A DNA stretch of 35,234 bases, taken from assembly GCA_048938445.1 (NCBI GenBank), contig JBHLME010000037.1, forward strand, positions 1 to 35,234, written 5' to 3'. Positions 1 through 35,234 of the stretch are shown here, in pieces. Under the pieces are notes generated by a model, which searched no databases, was not told the DNA's origin, and worked only from the letters and a program-made list of their open reading frames with translations. The stretch is from Promethearchaeota archaeon (lineage in GTDB: Archaea; Asgardarchaeota; Lokiarchaeia; Sigyniarchaeales; SOKP01). How positions within the stretch are numbered: the first letter of the stretch is position 1; each line of letters begins with the position of its first letter. Made by a program: the position numbers and the translations under genes.

Positions 1-58
1 CTTGGCATCCGAGGCTTTCACCCTCGTGACCCGGGTTCGAATCCCGGCGGGAGCACCA
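1..58 (+). tRNA. tRNA-Glu(TTC), 5' end truncated by window edge
   Basis: Anticodon arm CGAGG-CT-TTC-AC-CCTCG, T arm CCGGG-TTCGAAT-CCCGG, 3' acceptor strand ending in encoded ACCA (55-58). Confidence 0.93.
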
Positions 59-81
59 ATAACCAGAGTACATAAAAATGT

Positions 82-242
82 GCCTCCGTAGCTCAGTTAG
101 GTAGAGCACCGCCAAGAATGGTGTGCCGAAAGCACCCGGCTAAGATAAGTATATCATACTCTATCTCCGGAAGTTAACCGGGCGGTCGCATGTTCGATTT
201 TCTCCTTGATTTCCAAGGAGAATGAAAACCATGCCGGGGGCG
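82..242 (+). tRNA. tRNA-Asn(GTT) with three introns (about 105-130, 142-172, 199-228)
   Basis: Acceptor GCCTCCG/CGGGGGC plus discriminator G. Removing three BHB-flanked inserts gives GCCTCCGTAGCTCAGTTAGGTAGAGCACCCGGCTGTTAACCGGGCGGTCGCATGTTCGATCCATGCCGGGGGCG, a typical archaeal tRNA-Asn. Confidence 0.9.
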
Positions 243-314
243 CTAATTCAATTATTACAGATAGCTCTAAAAAAATTATATTATTTAAAAATATTTTTAA
301 AAAAACAAGAACTT

Positions 315-845
315 CTAATTTTCTTCTTGATCAGCATAATAAATTAGCCATTTTGCCATAGCTTGAAAGGATTCATTAATATTAATATCTTCTTTTGAGG
401 AACAAAAAACACATTGATTACATTTAGCTTTGTCAGCATAATCGTTAGCAACATCATTATCCACTTCATGATCTGCTAAATCCCACTTCATTCCTAAGAG
501 AATAATTGGTATGAATCCCGCTTTTTGCCTAATAATCTTTAACCATTCTGGAACTTCCTTGAAAGTTTCATAGTCAGTAAGGTCAAAACAGATAAATGCA
601 CCGCTTGCACCCTTGCAATAATCAGGTAATAACTCCCGAAAACGTTTTTCACCAGCAAAATCCCATAATTGCATTTTAACAGACTCTCCTGTATCAAGAA
701 TTTCAGATTTCGTATGAAATCCTGCACCTATAGTCATTTTATAACCTTCTTCGAATTTTCCTGTACAATAGCGAGTAATCATTGCGGTTTTACCAACACC
801 TCCCGCTCCAGCAATGACAACTTTAAAAATCCATGAACTCTGCAT
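315..845 (-). CDS. Rab-like small GTPase (Ras superfamily, Asgard eukaryotic signature protein)
   Basis: G1 GAGGVGKT, G2 YKMTIG, G3 LWDFAGE, RFRELLPDYCKGA, G4 MKWD, G5 CSSK; 176 aa with no C-terminal prenylation motif. Confidence 0.9.
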   Translation of the reverse strand: MQSSWIFKVVIAGAGGVGKTAMITRYCTGKFEEGYKMTIGAGFHTKSEILDTGESVKMQLWDFAGEKRFRELLPDYCKGASGAFICFDLTDYETFKEVPEWLKIIRQKAGFIPIILLGMKWDLADHEVDNDVANDYADKAKCNQCVFCSSKEDININESFQAMAKWLIYYADQEEN

Positions 846-1037
846 TTTAAAATTTACTTCTAATTATATTTTTATTATAATGATAATAATTATTATATCT
901 TGGTTTGGAAATTTATATTTTTTTTTTTAAACAGTAATAAAATAAAAAAGATTTTTATAAGATTTTATTCTATTATTTTTTAGTACTTGAGTTTAAATAA
1001 TATTTGATCATAATAAGAAAGGTTGTGAATATAGCCT

Positions 1038-1361
1038 ATTAAAGACGACGACATTTGTCCATTATGTAGTTTTCCAAAAGAGCTTTGTATTTGTAATAGT
1101 CTAAGTGCAGATGAACAACAAATAATAATATCTAATGATCGAAGAAAATGGGGTCGTATTGTCACGGTCATTACATTTGAGGGTAATTTTGATGCAAATC
1201 TTAAAGAAATTTTAACTGAAGCAAAAAGAAAATGTGCTTCGGGCGGAACTGTGAGAGGGAATGAAGTTGAACTTCAAGGTGATCATAAGTTTAAAATTAA
1301 AAGATTTTTAGTTGATTTAGGCTTTCCCGAAGAAAACATTACAATTAAAGAGACAATCTAA
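1038..1361 (+). CDS. sui1: Translation initiation factor aIF1/SUI1 (not in ORF track; probable ATT start)
   Basis: Manual translation: IKDDDICPLCSFPKELCICNSLSADEQQIIISNDRRKWGRIVTVITFEG...KRKCASGGTVRGNEVELQGDHKFKIKRFLVDLGFPEENITIKETI*. Has the archaeal N-terminal Zn knuckle and the SUI1 ELQGDH motif. In-frame TAG at 1032-1034. Confidence 0.92.
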   Translation: MKDDDICPLCSFPKELCICNSLSADEQQIIISNDRRKWGRIVTVITFEGNFDANLKEILTEAKRKCASGGTVRGNEVELQGDHKFKIKRFLVDLGFPEENITIKETI

Positions 1362-1443
1362 AAATTAATCCATGTTTTTATATATAAAGGTTTTTTACTG
1401 ATAATTAAATATTTATTTATCCGGATCATTAAATCATAATTCT

Positions 1444-1887
1444 ATGAAAAACATAAATTATAAAGTATTTTTCAAGGGATGGAATAAAGAAGAGCCTTTA
1501 GATTTAGTTTTAACTTTTAAAAAAATTAACTTCAAAAAAAAAGTAAAAATCCCCTTTAGAATTATATCAGATCTCAAGAACTTGAGTGATAAGAATCCAA
1601 TTATCGTTGTTTTTCAAAATATTGAAGATGTATTAACGATAGGAGATTATCCAAACACAAATGATTATATAAATTATTATGTTATATTATATTCATCAAA
1701 ATTAGATGGAAAGAAGGAAGGACTTTTAATTGGAAGCGAAAAGAAAGAAAGCGACCTTGTAATATTAGGTCTATGGCCTTTTAACAGCTTTAAAGATGAT
1801 TTTTCAAAAGAACAAATTTTAGAAATATTCAACTGTTTGATTAATATGACAAATAATTATGAAAGTATTAGCTTGATTTCTTCATGA
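1444..1887 (+). CDS. Hypothetical protein
   Basis: 147-aa ORF that fills the space between neighbours; no motif recognised. Confidence 0.6.
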   Translation: MKNINYKVFFKGWNKEEPLDLVLTFKKINFKKKVKIPFRIISDLKNLSDKNPIIVVFQNIEDVLTIGDYPNTNDYINYYVILYSSKLDGKKEGLLIGSEKKESDLVILGLWPFNSFKDDFSKEQILEIFNCLINMTNNYESISLISS

Positions 1888-1914
1888 CATCTTTCAATAA
1901 GATATAAAGAGAAA

Positions 1915-3633
1915 TTAAATCCCTAGTTCTTTAATGGTTTTATTTAATTCTTCACTTACATTCACTTCTTGAAAATTATTAGCAATTAATTCATAAGAAG
2001 AATTAAAGTCGCTGTATTTTGATTTTCCTCGTATTATCAAATCTTTTCCTAAAAGCTCTGCAGATTTATTCTCCAAGAATTTATCAAAATCAGGAGTATC
2101 TTTTATCTTCAAGATTGTATTCGTATCATTTCCGATTAATTTCTCAGCAATTTCACCAATGAAAGTTGTTCTTATTGTAGCACTTTCGTCATCAATTATA
2201 AGATTAAGAATCATCCTGTGAGTTGTTGTTGTTTTTTCTTCACAAATACAATTACTAATTTTTTTAAAACAATTTTTACAGGCTTCATATAATGTAATAT
2301 TCTTAATTTCTTTAGCGATAAAGCCCTTAATTTCATAAGTACCCGTTGAATTAATTGAATTAATACTTGTATAATTACCTGAAATTTCATTCCTCGATTT
2401 ACCAACTCCATTTTCACTACTTTTTACATTATCTAATTTTAAATCAATTAATTCCAAGGAAGAATCATTTAAAAAAGAGATTTCATTTCTATTTGAAAAA
2501 TTACTATATCTTGTCATGACGTCTTTTAAAAAAATCCCCTTTCCTTTTTTTAAAATTTTTGAAAATTCTTCTGCCTTCTCACGCCATAAAGTCACTCGAA
2601 TATAGTCAGTTTCATCACTTACAACAAATCCTAATAAAGCTACTACTTCCTCGGTTTTAAGAGTGATGTTTTTTAAATTATCTATTGAGCTCACTATTCC
2701 CGTAAAAGAAACATAAGTATTTTTTTCTTTTTGTAATTGTTCTATTTTGTCAACAATTTCACTTTGAAATACATTATCTTTTTTACTCATATTAATAATT
2801 GTATTTCGACTTGCATACAAGTCAATTGATTTTTTATCAAGATTATTTAATCTTGGATTTAAACTAGAAATTGAAACGAAATCTCCCATCTTATAATTTT
2901 CTATTTTACTGGTATCTTCATTCCAGAAAGTAACTCTTATCGTACCAGTACTATCTGCTAAGACTAAAGAGCTTATCTCACCAGTCTCGCCATTACTTCT
3001 TGAGAACTGTTTTATCGGAAATTTTTGTATAATTTTTCCCTCTATCATGATCGATTTTTGATTTAAATTGATATCTTCAATTTTAGCTATCTCATCTTTT
3101 ATTTTTGGATATTTTTTATAATCTACATCTTCGGGAGCAAGTATTATCTTCCCTAATCTACCAATTTGAACTTCAATTGTATTATTCCTTCCCTCTTTTG
3201 CATAACCATTGATAATCTTAACCAATTCATTCTTATTAAAATTTTTTTCATTAAATATATTCACGTGCTCATCCCATAAGACAATTCGAATATCTCCAGT
3301 ATTATCATGTAATAAAAAAGATCCAACATATCCAATGTTCCCGTCATTTCTTTTAAAAGTGTTGATATTGTAAACGTCCTTGATTCTCCCAATTAACGTA
3401 ATGTTTTTCATTTTTGAAGTTATATCTGAAATATTTATGTCAATTTCACTTAATAATGACTTATTTTCCTCTTTGACATCAACACCTAGATCTTTTGCTA
3501 TGATAAATAAGGCACCCTCCTCAGAAATAAGTCCTTTTAGTTCATCCTTTTTTTTCTTTACTAAATCCTCAATTTCTTTTTTATTTAATCCCGTTTTTTC
3601 AATTATTTTGCTAATATATAATTCCGTTTTCAT
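1915..3633 (-). CDS. rpa1: Replication protein A large subunit (RPA1/RPA70-like, multi-OB-fold ssDNA-binding protein)
   Basis: N-terminal helical domain (GLISEEGALFIIAKDLGV), repeated OB motifs (D-x-TG-x-IR-x-xW), C-terminal OB fold with Zn finger CKNC..CIC; SD-like GGTGA upstream. Confidence 0.88.
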   Translation of the reverse strand: MKTELYISKIIEKTGLNKKEIEDLVKKKKDELKGLISEEGALFIIAKDLGVDVKEENKSLLSEIDINISDITSKMKNITLIGRIKDVYNINTFKRNDGNIGYVGSFLLHDNTGDIRIVLWDEHVNIFNEKNFNKNELVKIINGYAKEGRNNTIEVQIGRLGKIILAPEDVDYKKYPKIKDEIAKIEDINLNQKSIMIEGKIIQKFPIKQFSRSNGETGEISSLVLADSTGTIRVTFWNEDTSKIENYKMGDFVSISSLNPRLNNLDKKSIDLYASRNTIINMSKKDNVFQSEIVDKIEQLQKEKNTYVSFTGIVSSIDNLKNITLKTEEVVALLGFVVSDETDYIRVTLWREKAEEFSKILKKGKGIFLKDVMTRYSNFSNRNEISFLNDSSLELIDLKLDNVKSSENGVGKSRNEISGNYTSINSINSTGTYEIKGFIAKEIKNITLYEACKNCFKKISNCICEEKTTTTHRMILNLIIDDESATIRTTFIGEIAEKLIGNDTNTILKIKDTPDFDKFLENKSAELLGKDLIIRGKSKYSDFNSSYELIANNFQEVNVSEELNKTIKELGI

Positions 3634-6024: not shown

Positions 6025-6549
6025 ATGGATATAAAAAACATTAATGGCTCTGAAATTGAGATTAAAATTGCTAAAAATGAAAGCATATATGATTTTAACT
6101 TATGTGCTAGTGACTTTATTGAATTTATTGATAATTTTGAAGAATTATTTTTAAATAAAAAATTGTTTATTCTCACTGCGTATTATCAAAAAACATTAGT
6201 TGGAATTGTGGTTGCAGAAGATAAAACCAAAAAAGTCGATTCTATTGAGAAAATCGTACCAATAATGATCTTGCATCTAATATATGTTAATCCAAATTAT
6301 AGAAATAGAAAAATTGGACAAAATTTATTAGTACATTTTATAACTATTCAAAAAAAGAATGGTATCGCTGCGATTCACTCTATTCTACCTCAAAAACATG
6401 TGATTGGTATAAATTTTCTTGAAAAAAATGATTTTTATCAAAAAGAAAGGAAAGGAAATAAAATTTTACTAGAATTAAAATTATGGAATGATTATGGCAT
6501 AGGAGATTGTCATATAATAGGCGATAATATAAATGATTTGTTAAGTTAG
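6025..6549 (+). CDS. GNAT family N-acetyltransferase
   Basis: Motif A IYVNPNYRNRKIG and motif B-like FLEKNDF. Confidence 0.75.
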   Translation: MDIKNINGSEIEIKIAKNESIYDFNLCASDFIEFIDNFEELFLNKKLFILTAYYQKTLVGIVVAEDKTKKVDSIEKIVPIMILHLIYVNPNYRNRKIGQNLLVHFITIQKKNGIAAIHSILPQKHVIGINFLEKNDFYQKERKGNKILLELKLWNDYGIGDCHIIGDNINDLLS

Positions 6550-6641
6550 AGGGAATCTCTTTTCTTATTATTAGATGAATCTCCACTTTCAAAAAATCAG
6601 AATAATAAAACTTATTTTAGAAAGAAGGATGTTATTATTTT

Positions 6642-7448
6642 ATGTCAACTAAACAAATTGGCTTGATTGGAATTGGTAACATGGGTACTGCTTTATTAAC
6701 TGGTGTTTTGAATTCAGAAATTGAGAAAAATGACAAAATAATCATTTATGATGTTAACCAAAAATTATTGGATGAGAAAGCAAAGGAATTTAACGTGGGT
6801 AAAGCTAAAAATAATGCTGAATTAGTTAAAGAATCCAAATATATTATACTAGCTATAAAACCACAAGTAATTGGAAGTGTATTGGAAGAAATTGCTCCTT
6901 TGATTAACGAAAATCATGTAGTTATATCTATTGCTGCAGGTGTTACCATAAAGAACATTCAAAAAATCATTGGAAAAAACGTGGGTATAACTAGGGTAAT
7001 GCCAAATACTCCTGCTTTAGTTGGTGAAGGCGCTTCTGTGATTGCTACTAATGGATTTATAAAAAATAACGATTTGGAATATGTTAAAAATATTTTTACC
7101 GCAGTAGGGATTGTTTTTGTCATGGATGAAAAATATATGGATGCAGTAACTGGATTGTCTGGAAGTGGTCCTGCATATATTTTTATTATCATTGAAGCTT
7201 TATCAGATGGAGGTGTAAAAATGGGTTTACCTCGTGATATCGCATTAAAACTTGCAGCTCAGACAGTATTAGGATCCGCTAAGATGTATTTAAAAACCGA
7301 AAAACATCCAGGAACATTGAAGGACATGGTGACTTCTCCTGGAGGCACTACAATTGCCGCACTCCATGAATTAGAGAAAGGAAAATTGAGATCAACTTTA
7401 ATAAGCGCTGTTGAAACTGCTACTCTAAAATCAAAATCACTAAATTAA
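6642..7448 (+). CDS. proC: Pyrroline-5-carboxylate reductase
   Basis: GIGNMG, LAIKPQ, SIAAG, RVMPNTP, TGLSGSGPAY, VTSPGGTT. Confidence 0.96.
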   Translation: MSTKQIGLIGIGNMGTALLTGVLNSEIEKNDKIIIYDVNQKLLDEKAKEFNVGKAKNNAELVKESKYIILAIKPQVIGSVLEEIAPLINENHVVISIAAGVTIKNIQKIIGKNVGITRVMPNTPALVGEGASVIATNGFIKNNDLEYVKNIFTAVGIVFVMDEKYMDAVTGLSGSGPAYIFIIIEALSDGGVKMGLPRDIALKLAAQTVLGSAKMYLKTEKHPGTLKDMVTSPGGTTIAALHELEKGKLRSTLISAVETATLKSKSLN

Positions 7449-7485
7449 ATAAAATAATAGTAATACTTTAATTAGGAGGAAAATA

Positions 7486-8193
7486 ATGGGAGAAAAGATT
7501 GTAATAAAAATTGGAGGTTCTCTGTTATTTAAAGATGATAATACAATTGATGTGGAAAAAATCACAGAAGTGTGTAAAGTACTCCAAAATAGAAAAAAAT
7601 TTGAATCAATTGTTATTATATGTGGAGGAGGTATAATTGCCAGAGATTACATTAATGTAGTCAGAGAATTTAGTGATAATGAAGCTTTATGCGATATAAT
7701 GGGAATTGAAGTATCAAGAATTAATTCAAAATTATTTATATCAAATTTAGGAGATGAAGCTTATCCTCAAGTTCCAAAAACTATAGAAGAGCTTTCTAAA
7801 GCAATGTTATTTAAAAAAATTATTATAATGGGAGGATTACAACCTGGGCAGTCTACAACATCTGTAGCAATTGAGGTTGCTGAATATATAAAAGCAAATA
7901 AAATCGTCATTCTTACGAATGTAGACGGTATTTATGATAAAGATCCTAAGAAATTCAAGGATGCGAAATTATTTAAAAACATTACTTATGACCAATTACA
8001 AGAATTAATTTTAAATTCTTCTGGAAATAATCAAGCTGCTGCTGGAGAATATAGAATTTTTGATACGGTTTCATTACAAATATTGAAACGATGTAATATT
8101 CCTCTTTTTTTAATGAATGGGAAGGATTTAACTGGATTTAAAAAGGTTTATGAGGGACAACAACACACAATTGGGACCCAGATTTCAAACTAG
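7486..8193 (+). CDS. pyrH: Archaeal UMP kinase
   Basis: KIGGS, GGGIIARDYI, GGLQPGQSTTSVA, TNVDGIYDKDP. Confidence 0.93.
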   Translation: MGEKIVIKIGGSLLFKDDNTIDVEKITEVCKVLQNRKKFESIVIICGGGIIARDYINVVREFSDNEALCDIMGIEVSRINSKLFISNLGDEAYPQVPKTIEELSKAMLFKKIIIMGGLQPGQSTTSVAIEVAEYIKANKIVILTNVDGIYDKDPKKFKDAKLFKNITYDQLQELILNSSGNNQAAAGEYRIFDTVSLQILKRCNIPLFLMNGKDLTGFKKVYEGQQHTIGTQISN

Positions 8194-8268
8194 TACGAGT
8201 CAATAAACTATTTTTATTATTACAGATTTAATATATCAAAATATAATCGAGTAAACTTGTAAAAAAAA

Positions 8269-8508
8269 ATGTCTCAATCTTCATGGAAAGATCAAATCAA
8301 ACAAAAATGGGGTCCTCACCTTCATTGTCCAATATGTGGAAAAGCAATGCCATCAGATAAAAAACTTTGCAGCCAAGCATGTAGAGATAATTATATAACT
8401 GCTGAAAAAAAACAAAAAAAGAAAGGTAGGTATCAAATGATTTTTCTCGTAGTAATGATGGTAGTAATGTTTATAGTCATGATATTTTTGCCAATGCTTG
8501 GTGGTTAA
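8269..8508 (+). CDS. DUF2116-type Zn-ribbon protein with C-terminal transmembrane helix
   Basis: PHLHCPICGKAMP..LCSQAC, basic stretch, hydrophobic C-terminal tail. Confidence 0.82.
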   Translation: MSQSSWKDQIKQKWGPHLHCPICGKAMPSDKKLCSQACRDNYITAEKKQKKKGRYQMIFLVVMMVVMFIVMIFLPMLGG

Positions 8509-8517
8509 GGAGGAAAA

Positions 8518-8669
8518 GCAGAGATAACCAAGCCAGGTCAAAGTACTAATGAACATATCAATGTTATGAATTAGTACGGCTATCGGTGTCGGACTCAAGA
8601 TCTTCTTTTTAAAAAAAATAAGACATCCGATCTCATAGGAGTACGGGGGTTCAAATCCCTCTCTCTGCA
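8518..8669 (+). tRNA. tRNA-Leu(CAA) with two introns (8542-8583 in D loop; 8600-8624 at 37/38)
   Basis: Acceptor GCAGAGA/TCTCTGC plus A; anticodon arm TCGGA-CT-CAA-GA-TCCGA after splicing; long variable arm CTCATAGGAG; T arm GGGGG-TTCAAAT-CCCTC. Confidence 0.9.
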
Positions 8670-8691
8670 TCTCTTATAAGATAAATCATCT

Positions 8692-9063
8692 CTAATTTTG
8701 ATTTTTATCTTTTATGACCTCATCTAAGATAGTGTTTAAAAATTGCGATAAGGGTTTTGCGATCTCATCTTCTTCATTAATATTTTTAAGAAAAAGGAGT
8801 GATAATACAGGGGCCTTAAGCATATTTGATGCCTTTTCGGCAATTATTTTACTTAATAATTTTTCTTTCATACCAAATAGGTTATATGATGCAGATGTTG
8901 AATTTAATCCTTCTATTGTTGGAGGACTGCTCAAGGTAACGTTCCCAATACCCATATTCTCTTGATCAGAAATAAGTAAGAGATAAGATTTATACATTTG
9001 AAAAAGTGATAAATAAATTATATGGTTATCATATGAAAAATTCTTTTTTTTTAATAGAATCAT
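8692..9063 (-). CDS. Hypothetical protein, possibly proteasome assembly chaperone 3/4 (PAC4-like) fold
   Basis: 123 aa; beta-rich N-terminus (YLLLISD..IGNVTLS), then LFG...SKIIAEKASNMLKAPVLSL, resembling the PSMG4 LLG..LAQRLARK..QVFVS pattern. Confidence 0.5.
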   Translation of the reverse strand: MILLKKKNFSYDNHIIYLSLFQMYKSYLLLISDQENMGIGNVTLSSPPTIEGLNSTSASYNLFGMKEKLLSKIIAEKASNMLKAPVLSLLFLKNINEEDEIAKPLSQFLNTILDEVIKDKNQN

Positions 9064-33993: not shown

Positions 33994-34234
33994 ATGTCAA
34001 GCATTAAAAAAAATGCTCATAGGAACATTCTCCCTATTATAATATGAGTCTTCAAATTATGGTATACAATTATATTTTTAATTGTTGTAATTTGTAATGT
34101 CTCGAATCGTCAAGGTTGATACTTGCTTTACTATTAAAATTATAAAGCAAAAGTAATGGTAATTTAAAGACCAAACTGAATCTTACAAGCTTTTGTACAA
34201 GCAATCTGAACCTTTCCTTTATTAGACGCCAATA

Positions 34235-35234
34235 CGCCTCCGCTATTTGGTGGATATCTTGGCTTGGGCACCGATGAAGAGCGTGGCAAGCTGCGATAAG
34301 CTTGGGTTAGTCGCATGCAGACGCAGACCCCAAGATCCTCGAATAGGACATCCACTTGCGAACCAATAATTCGCAAGATTCCCGGCAGGGAAGGGGAACC
34401 CTGGGAAGTAAAACATTTTAGTACCAGGAGGAAAAGAAAACAATAGTGATTCCGTGAGTAACGGCGAGCGAAAGCGGAATAGATCAAACCGAATCCTTAG
34501 GGAAACCTAATGGAAATGTGGTGTATGGGCCTCGTACGACCTAACCAGCTAAGGTGAATACCTCTGGAATGCCGAACCATAGAGCGTGATAGTCGCGTAG
34601 CTGTAAACTGGAAGGTTGCTGCGGGAGTCCCTGAGTAGTGCGGGATGGTTTTCTCGTACGAACGTGCCAGACACACACTGGCAAATCTAAATATGTCCCA
34701 AGACCGATAGTGCAATAGTAGCGTGAGCGAAAGATGAAAAGTAACCCGGAAGGGCCGTGAAAAGTGCTTGAAACCAAATAGCTTAATAAGGATGCAGCCT
34801 GAAAGGATAGATTCTGGGCGAATGTGTTCTGGTGACGGAACAACAGAGTTCAGAGGACTAGGGTTGCATCATCAGTCTGGAATCATTGGCCAGGGAGTTT
34901 ATGGTTGAGGCGAGCTTAAGTGTCGTGCGACACGTAGGCAAAGGGAAACCGATATTCTTGCAGCTCAATTATCACATTGGAATAGTCCTCTCGACCGCGA
35001 GTGGTTCTGCCACTCAACGTCGTTTGGATGGGTTCCTCTAAGGGATTGAGTCAGAAGAATGGTCTCAAAGGGCCAAGAGTCTCAGCCATAATACCCGAAG
35101 CCGGTCGATCTATTCCTGGGCAAGATGAAGTCGTCCGAAAGGGCGATGGAGGTCTGCAGTAGTGCTGACGTGCAATTCGCTTACATGACCTGGGAATAGG
35201 AGCAAAAGGCTAATCTAGATCGGTGTTAGCTGGT
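34235..35234 (+). rRNA. rrl: 23S rRNA, 5' portion (start approximate; truncated by window end)
   Basis: Conserved LSU motifs GGTGGAT, CGATGAAG, CTGCGATAAG, GAAGTAAAACATTTTAGTACC, AGTAACGGCGAGCGAA, GACCGATAG, ACCCGAAGCCGGTCGATCTA, GCTAATC. Confidence 0.96.

Follow-up and report, generated by a model that had tools for sequence, protein, structure and literature searches.

Positions 82–242 (+) of the window, by which we mean the whole 35,234-nt stretch of DNA that was analysed, hold a tRNA-Asn(GUU) gene of 161 nt that is divided into four exons by three introns of 26, 31 and 30 nt, the introns together accounting for 87 of the 161 nt. Exon 1 (82–104, +) supplies the 5' strand of the acceptor stem, positions 8–9, the 5' strand of the D-stem, a 9-nt D-loop and G22, and it aligns to the intron-less orthologues at loci L013, L016 and L018. 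The 26-nt intron 1 (105–130, +) interrupts the D-arm, where placements from 22/23 to 28/29 are equivalent and the best is 104/105...130/131, corresponding to 22/23 in Sprinzl numbering. Exon 2 (131–141, +) contributes A23–C25, position 26, the 5' strand of the anticodon stem, C32 and U33, and is separated by the 31-nt intron 2 (142–172, +), which lies at 33/34 in a relaxed HBh' motif, from exon 3 (173–198, +). The latter carries the GUU anticodon, A37, A38, the 3' strand of the anticodon stem, a 5-nt variable region, the 5' strand of the T-stem and positions 54–59 of the T-loop. The 30-nt intron 3 (199–228, +) is found at 59/60 in a strict hBHBh' motif, and exon 4 (229–242, +) completes the gene with C60, the 3' strands of the T-stem and acceptor stem and the discriminator base G73. 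The 37/38 site is left unoccupied by all three introns, and the CCA end is not encoded, the letters directly 3' of position 242 being CTA.

When the four exons are joined, the resulting 74-nt sequence is called by ARAGORN as tRNA-Asn(gtt) with a standard cloverleaf, in which all 21 stem pairs are formed (20 Watson–Crick and 1 G–U) and the anticodon is a sense anticodon. The same gene was recovered by a blind cloverleaf search of window positions 41–290, which used no orthologue input, left the start point and the cloverleaf unrestricted and allowed as many as four jumps across BHB-like candidates. All 12 of its solutions were variants of the tRNA-Asn gene, with the top score shared between the solution of an earlier, sequence-only reading and a variant in which intron 3 lies two bases upstream (197–226); both form 21/21 stem pairs. 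The precursor has a predicted folding energy of −62.8 kcal/mol (z = −4.89), which was equalled by none of 200 shuffles, and its MFE fold shows the acceptor and T stems together with a 9-bp hairpin at intron 3 and, at intron 2, CCGG paired with CCGG next to a 3-nt bulge. BHB-like motifs often arise by chance (an average of 3.0 strict and 16.5 one-flank motifs per shuffle of the 161 nt), so a motif by itself proves little and the weight is placed instead on the blind search, the stability of the fold and the intron-less orthologues described below. The locus at 82–242 is confirmed as a genuine interrupted tRNA-Asn(GUU) gene. Each structural element that the sequence-only reading had proposed is present, namely a 26-nt D-arm intron near 22/23 with an ambiguous boundary, a 31-nt intron at 33/34, a 30-nt T-loop intron at 59/60 with a 9-bp stem, an empty 37/38 site and a gene more than half of which is intron.

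That reading had also anticipated that standard scanners would miss the gene, and this is the case. ARAGORN found no tRNA in the window, nor any on the contig when introns were allowed, and the Rfam tRNA model (RF00005) gave no match over 82–242 either at the gathering threshold (29 bits) or at E ≤ 10, the only Rfam tRNA match in the window being a cut tRNA at 1–55. The introns keep the unspliced gene below the RF00005 threshold, and the missing match is therefore no argument against a tRNA. A neighbouring tRNA-Glu(UUC), seen at window 1–58 and continuing upstream at 85–196 (−) of contig C110 of the same genome (G000), has a D-arm intron of ~36 nt and, unlike tRNA-Asn, encodes its CCA end.

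Directly downstream of tRNA-Asn, positions 315–845 (−) encode a 176-aa small GTPase of the Ras/Roc family (Pfam Ras, E = 1.2e-38), a kind of gene that is typical of Asgard genomes. The window also encodes an RPA-like protein and eRF1, and it closes with the 5' part of an archaeal LSU rRNA (34226–35234, +; Rfam, 755 bits), which is truncated where the window stops; small-subunit rRNA was not matched anywhere in the window. The genome amounts to 4.63 Mb with 29.6% G+C and an estimated bin contamination of 8.17%. It belongs to an Asgard archaeon (Promethearchaeota), and the lineage is probably Lokiarchaeia-type.

Splice motifs at the three introns

The BHB motifs sit exactly at the boundaries which restore the cloverleaf. 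If such a motif is defined by two 3-nt bulges around a central helix of 4 bp, flanked on one side or both by a further helix, it is present at introns 2 and 3, and at intron 1 in a relaxed sense only. At intron 3 the flanks TTCG-AT^T (193–199) and TGAA-AA^C (223–229) provide a central helix of four pairs (TTCG/TGAA) between 3-nt bulges AU^U and AA^C, with an inner helix of 9 bp (TTCTCCTTG/CAAGGAGAA, 200–208/214–222) and the 5-bp T stem as the outer helix. At intron 2 the flanks are CCGG-CT^A (136–142) and CCGG-AA^G (167–173), the four central pairs being formed between CCGG(136–139) and CCGG(167–170) and the bulges being CU^A and AA^G. Here, there is an inner helix of 5 bp and no outer helix, as in the relaxed HBh' type. 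Because its central helix borrows the 5' strand of the anticodon stem, the cloverleaf and the splice motif of intron 2 compete with one another.

The boundaries of intron 1 are less sharply set. The hexamer AGCACC occurs at 105–110 and again at 131–136, such that seven placements of the 26-nt intron yield an identical product. Among these seven, a BHB-like fold with at least three central pairs is formed at 104/105...130/131 only, and the motif at this 22/23 position comprises three of four central pairs, an A–G mismatch, an inner helix of 6 bp and one outer pair, making it a relaxed motif only. The central helix pairs G18, G19 and U20 of the D-loop with the intron's GCC. The MFE fold offers an alternative at the D-arm, in which the 5' strand of the D-stem is paired with G104 and the intron's AGC.

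The orthologues described in the next section allowed the pairing of each intron to be compared across genomes. In intron 3, 96.3% of cells pair across nine orthologues, compared with 25–49% when the partner strand is slid, and two pairs are changed on both sides, giving a covariation score that was reached by 1 of 500 shuffles. The figure for intron 2 is also 96.3%, across six orthologues, and four of its five inner-helix pairs show compensatory changes, a score reached by none of 500 shuffles. In the eight orthologues available for intron 1, 95.3% of cells pair (14–67% when slid) with no compensatory change among them; the changes are all one-sided and to G–U, and 500/500 shuffles equal the observed score. 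These sets are small (6–9 orthologues) and related, and the numbers are thus supportive but short of proof. Given the weak pairing and the lack of covariation at intron 1, it is geometry that places its BHB and cut site. The central A–G mismatch is replaced by an A–U pair in five of the eight orthologues, producing 4/4 central pairs, and the segment GCC-N-AAA, which comprises the central helix and the 3' bulge of intron 1, is invariant among the orthologues except at N.

Direct repeats are seen at two of the intron borders. AGCACC opens both intron 1 and the exon that follows it, which is not demanded by BHB geometry, and a second border repeat is formed by CCGG-CT (136–141), closing exon 2, and CCGG-AA (167–172), closing intron 2. 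In orthologues, the intron copy of AGCACC drifts (AGCATC, AGCACT, AGTACC, AGCGCC) and the exon copy is invariant. It is conceivable, if quite doubtful, that the border repeats are footprints of insertion (target-site duplication), or else that the intron copy acts as a placeholder strand which keeps a D-stem in the precursor, as in the MFE fold. The main text of a recent census of Asgard tRNA genes leaves the mechanism of intron insertion open (bioRxiv 10.64898/2026.10.13.758758). If the idea were true, a locus with 0 to 4 introns in 17 genomes would provide a natural series for how introns arrive.

Orthologues and the distribution of introns

The gene was compared by BLAST with 40 related genomes, 24 of them from the same family, with three other families of the order also represented. 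Within the family, 17 of these 24 genomes yielded orthologue pieces; this search found none in the other three families, nor in five genomes of the same genus (68–94% complete). Introns were parsed by BHB-constrained splicing together with a hand check of gene length, the copies of G020 and G021 being parsed manually. Free-gap alignment to an intron-less orthologue was dropped, since it either fused introns 1 and 2 or broke exons around mismatches.

The 20 complete copies contain between 0 and 4 introns distributed over five sites (D-arm, 33/34, 37/38, 59/60 and 63/64), and orthologues both with and without each intron of the present gene are found. There is no intron in G014, G009 and G023, a single intron in G016 and in both copies of G018, two in G019, G007, G012, G011 and G013, and three in G006, G024, G010 and G021 as in G000. 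Four introns (D-arm, 33/34, 59/60 and 63/64) are present in G008, where they occupy 117 of 191 nt (L002, 1501–1691, minus strand), and in G020, where they occupy 124 of 198 nt (L006, 1505–1702), while a copy in G015 that is cut by the contig end has at least two. Intron 1 is missing from 7 of the 20 complete copies. A length of exactly 30 nt is shared by 4/9 introns at 59/60 and by 3/5 at 63/64. The three intron-less copies score 66–71 bits against the Rfam tRNA model (cut-off 29).

Full-length orthologues numbered 14 in this comparison, and in 13 of them the exons match the predicted G000 product at 68–74 of 74 positions. Identity is complete (74/74) in G008 and in one of the G018 copies, the latter with a different intron, and reaches 73/74 in the intron-less G014; ten others fall at 68–72/74. 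The lowest value is 63/74, in G012, and the copy of G015, cut by the contig end, matches at 57/58. The introns that are shared have diverged, with 17–25 identical positions of 26–31.

In G000 and eight other genomes, tRNA-Asn and eRF1 are found on one contig at a distance of 29–54 kb, and this linkage identifies the copies as positional orthologues. On an eRF1 tree (a quick IQ-TREE run on a single gene, with several weak forks and 16–17 genomes), the distribution requires a minimum of 3, 2, 3, 3 and 2 changes at the five intron sites, which amounts to at least 13 gain or loss steps in total. G018 was omitted from this count on account of its two copies, and G015 was omitted for the two T-arm sites. 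DNA contigs from four sediment metagenome runs contain alleles which pass from 107–110 directly to 173, with 5–8 letters between (shorter side of the join 25–28 letters, likeness threshold 85). These alleles without introns 1 and 2 probably come from related organisms. A search for sequencing runs that contain window positions 1–3000 turned up none of RNA.

A rearranged copy was seen at one locus of G016 (L011), where an inverted partial duplicate of tRNA-Asn begins at 995 (+) and extends from the 5' end through the T-loop into the 59/60 intron, of which it includes the initial 8 nt. This duplicate directly abuts another tRNA-like gene, ~500 nt from the complete one-intron copy, and may be a pseudogene or the scar of a rearrangement.

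Splicing enzymes, a second tRNA-Asn and alternative readings

Two tRNA-intron endonuclease genes (PF01974) are present in the genome, on contigs C26 and C80. The C26 product (202 aa) is alpha-like, contains both Pfam domains and keeps the catalytic Tyr, His and Lys; its best match among solved structures is the 186-residue chain of PDB 3p1z/3ajv (3p1z_B; E = 1.8e-35), which is the EndA of Aeropyrum pernix according to PMC5829648. The loop PLGIAKPR of C26 is aligned to PLDVEKPR, placing K60 of the query opposite K44, the lysine described as lying behind broad specificity (PMC5829648), and the alignment also spans a His which is Ala in the 3ajv chain. The nearest named records to C26 are from Promethearchaeota and Promethearchaeia MAGs and are at most 87% identical. 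The C80 product (204 aa) has its best match in the EndA of M. jannaschii and carries Ser at the position of the catalytic His, which makes it beta-like and probably the structural beta subunit. Asgard archaea are described as having an (alpha-beta)2 EndA with an L1 loop that confers a broad substrate range (PMC5829648), and we infer that C26 and C80 form an (alpha-beta)2 heterotetramer able to act on relaxed motifs. An RtcB ligase is also encoded (E = 3.5e-169).

In the pathway that we propose, a precursor of ~161 nt would be transcribed in which the acceptor and T stems have already formed. An (alpha-beta)2-type endonuclease would then cut within the 3-nt bulges, acting on a strict motif at intron 3 and on relaxed motifs at introns 1 and 2, and in doing so would remove 26 nt from the D-arm (most likely by cutting at 22/23), 31 nt from 33/34 and 30 nt from 59/60. 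RtcB would join the four exons and CCA would be added afterwards. For this pathway we infer from sequence that cutting and joining take place in the cell, and likewise where precisely intron 1 is cut and in which order the introns leave. Overall, 82–242 is very probably the chromosomal tRNA-Asn(GUU) gene that the cell uses, its three introns being cut out by a two-subunit EndA and its exons joined by RtcB.

The genome also contains a tRNA-Asn gene of a different kind. At 8001–8074 of contig C215 there is an intact, intron-less 74-nt tRNA-Asn(gtt) with G73 (Rfam, 53.4 bits), which is identical to the spliced core gene at 56/74 positions and has a G+C content of 51% as against 65%. It belongs to an array of 26 intron-less tRNA genes, arranged in two blocks (~6480–9000 and 13600–15110 of C215 in G000; L028 and L029), which includes tRNA-Asn(GUU) and tRNA-Ile(UAU) and is flanked by cellular genes. 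Of the 40 other genomes searched, two have arrays with an identical gene order, on contig C54 of G020 and contig C266 of G008; none was found in the remaining 38. The base composition of C215 (30.1% G+C, compared with 29.6% for the genome) and an ORF between its tRNA blocks, which has a homologue of 67% identity within the genus, indicate that the contig probably belongs to the lineage. The array may be accessory, and possibly mobile, in a lineage whose core tRNA genes are rich in introns. We read it as an addition and not as a substitute for the core gene, in which constraint is visible on both exons and splice helices.

The presence of this second gene raises the question of which copy serves in decoding. 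The array tRNA-Asn(GUU) could in principle do so, as it is intact, has G73, scores 53.4 bits and lies on a contig that is probably of the same lineage; the interrupted gene would then be a decaying or silent relic. This is very improbable in view of the conservation at the core locus, where the exons are retained at 68–74/74 across genera against diverging introns and the helices of introns 2 and 3 keep their pairing through compensatory changes. Nearly frozen exons combined with compensated helices in these two introns point to selection for splicing. Moreover, the core gene, either interrupted or compact, is found in 17/24 family genomes, whereas a comparable array occurs in only 2/40 other genomes and its tRNA-Asn is the divergent one (56/74 identical, 51% versus 65% G+C). 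The sequence-only reading had reckoned with another intact tRNA-Asn supplying the function. Such a gene does exist, on C215, but the conservation argues that the interrupted gene is the working core copy.

Two further alternatives concern the gene structure itself. The same functional gene might have its D-arm insert cut at another of the seven placements, or by way of another fold, to give an identical mature product. The AGCACC repeat makes the placements indistinguishable in the product, the 22/23 motif contains its A–G mismatch and shows no covariation, and the MFE fold pairs the 5' strand of the D-stem with G104 and the intron's AGC instead. In addition, the D-arm inserts of G020 and G021 showed no fit to a simple BHB in the scan, and canonical BHBs are reported at 33% only of D-arm inserts in the main text of the Asgard census (bioRxiv 10.64898/2026.10.13.758758). 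We nonetheless think a different cut unlikely, since of the seven placements only 104/105...130/131 achieves three or more central pairs, the mismatch gives way to A–U in 5/8 orthologues to complete the central helix, and GCC-N-AAA does not vary apart from N. It is far less credible, to the point of being negligible, that the structure is an assembly artefact produced by a chimeric join or by collapsed strain variants at a contig end. The gene does lie 82 nt from the start of its contig (C131), contig C110 stops inside it at window 142, where intron 2 begins, with one base differing at window 71, and in the two best DNA runs (X1 and X2) contig cover is absent over 121–160. Against this, the 142-nt overlap of C110 and C131 is otherwise identical, intron 1 included, contigs from runs X4 and X6 span 81/82–196/202, and the D-arm and 33/34 introns are found at identical sites in independent assemblies of seven other genomes.

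With the core tRNA-Asn invisible to both ARAGORN and Rfam, automated annotation would list only the divergent array copy, or none, and the genome would then look incomplete in its tRNAs or dependent on an accessory element. Outside C215, many expected anticodons are missing from the ARAGORN list, which also has some odd entries, Phe(aaa) and a 'Stop' tRNA among them. This suggests that many more of the tRNA genes of this genome are interrupted. A first census, in which spliced subsets of the top 12 BHB candidates in each GC-rich island were given to ARAGORN, called the known gene 'Ser aga' with two introns and was discarded on this failure of the positive control. Its place was taken by a cloverleaf search that proceeds depth-first and may jump at BHBs; run in full, this gave the correct result on the control. 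The fast version required U8 and A14, was limited to class I tRNAs and to jumps from base 14 onwards, and covered 408 GC-rich islands. It returned 16 tRNAs, including an implausible three-jump call inside the C215 array, a tally that is far from complete and gives no genome intron burden; a null run on reversed sequence produced no match in the first 108 of 671 islands.

Some individual loci from this partial search can be described. At C18 13288–13391, C155 5849–5959 and C210 3738–3870 (G000) it recovered tRNA-Val(UAC) and tRNA-Glu(CUC) with D-arm introns, as well as tRNA-Pro(GGG) with two introns. Some of these loci receive wrong labels from ARAGORN, Phe(aaa), Tyr(ata) and Ser(cga) being examples. 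The D-arm introns of Val(TAC), Glu(UUC) and Glu(CUC) all begin after the position that precedes intron 1 in tRNA-Asn.

Comparison with known multi-intron tRNA genes

Multi-intron tRNA genes of the Thermoproteales were reportedly described by Sugahara in 2007 and 2008 and by Fujishima in 2010. They resemble the present gene in that a single gene can contain as many as three introns of BHB or relaxed-BHB type outside the canonical site, and in an (alpha-beta)2 EndA with the Crenarchaea-specific loop. The Thermoproteales belong to another phylum, however, and the genome analysed here is low in G+C (29.6%). Transposed intron families of the Thermoproteales type, recurring across tRNA genes, were not seen here: a blastn-short search of the genome for a second copy of the three introns returned only self matches and the overlapping contig, the best other match having E = 0.25.

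The pre-tRNA-Glu(UUC) of Methanopyrus kandleri is comparable in that its D-arm contains an intron with a relaxed HBh' motif and is served by an (alpha-beta)2 enzyme (PMC5829648), and the neighbouring tRNA-Glu(UUC) here likewise has a D-arm intron. The M. kandleri enzyme is without the specific loop and has a narrow substrate range (PMC5829648), whereas the alpha subunit of the present genome carries the loop lysine.

The multi-intron tRNAs of other Asgard archaea share with this gene both the phylum-level group and the presence of several BHB-type introns at non-canonical positions in the D-arm and T-arm, as two studies show (PMC11291895, on Atabeyarchaeia and Freyarchaeia; bioRxiv 10.64898/2026.10.13.758758). 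In three Asgard genomes, introns were found in 92–95% of tRNA genes, with several introns in more than half of those and many at non-canonical positions (PMC11291895). The census covers 90 Asgard genomes and reports up to five inserts per tRNA gene, the D-arm inserts being those missed by annotators and the T-arm inserts those with a canonical BHB (bioRxiv 10.64898/2026.10.13.758758). The same text describes repeated gains, with no intron families common to different tRNA genes and 1.5% in cross-type families, and EndA as two paralogues in most Asgard genomes (bioRxiv 10.64898/2026.10.13.758758). All of our observations agree with this picture, and the likeness extends to T-arm motifs that are mostly strict, relaxed D-arm motifs, an EndA of two paralogues and the lack of shared intron families. 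The claim of the sequence-only reading that triple-intron tRNAs are rare and best described in Thermoproteales is thus out of date, since the host is an Asgard archaeon and multi-intron tRNA genes are common and published in that group. The studies differ from ours in their focal families, which are Freyrarchaeaceae, Jordiarchaeaceae and Atabeyarchaeaceae, the nearest named relatives here being Promethearchaeota and Promethearchaeia MAGs. Neither 'Lokiarchae' nor 'Promethearchae' occurs in the main text of the census (bioRxiv 10.64898/2026.10.13.758758).

The interrupted tRNA-Asn(GUU) gene is a sound further example of a documented Asgard trait and not a new kind of element, and the knowledge of how tRNA introns work is unchanged by it. 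What it adds to the known cases is a single syntenic locus at which 0–4 introns occupy five sites across one family within exons that are nearly frozen. Furthermore, because one 161-nt RNA combines three kinds of BHB (strict, HBh' and mismatched), it offers a compact substrate for probing the range of the Asgard endonuclease.
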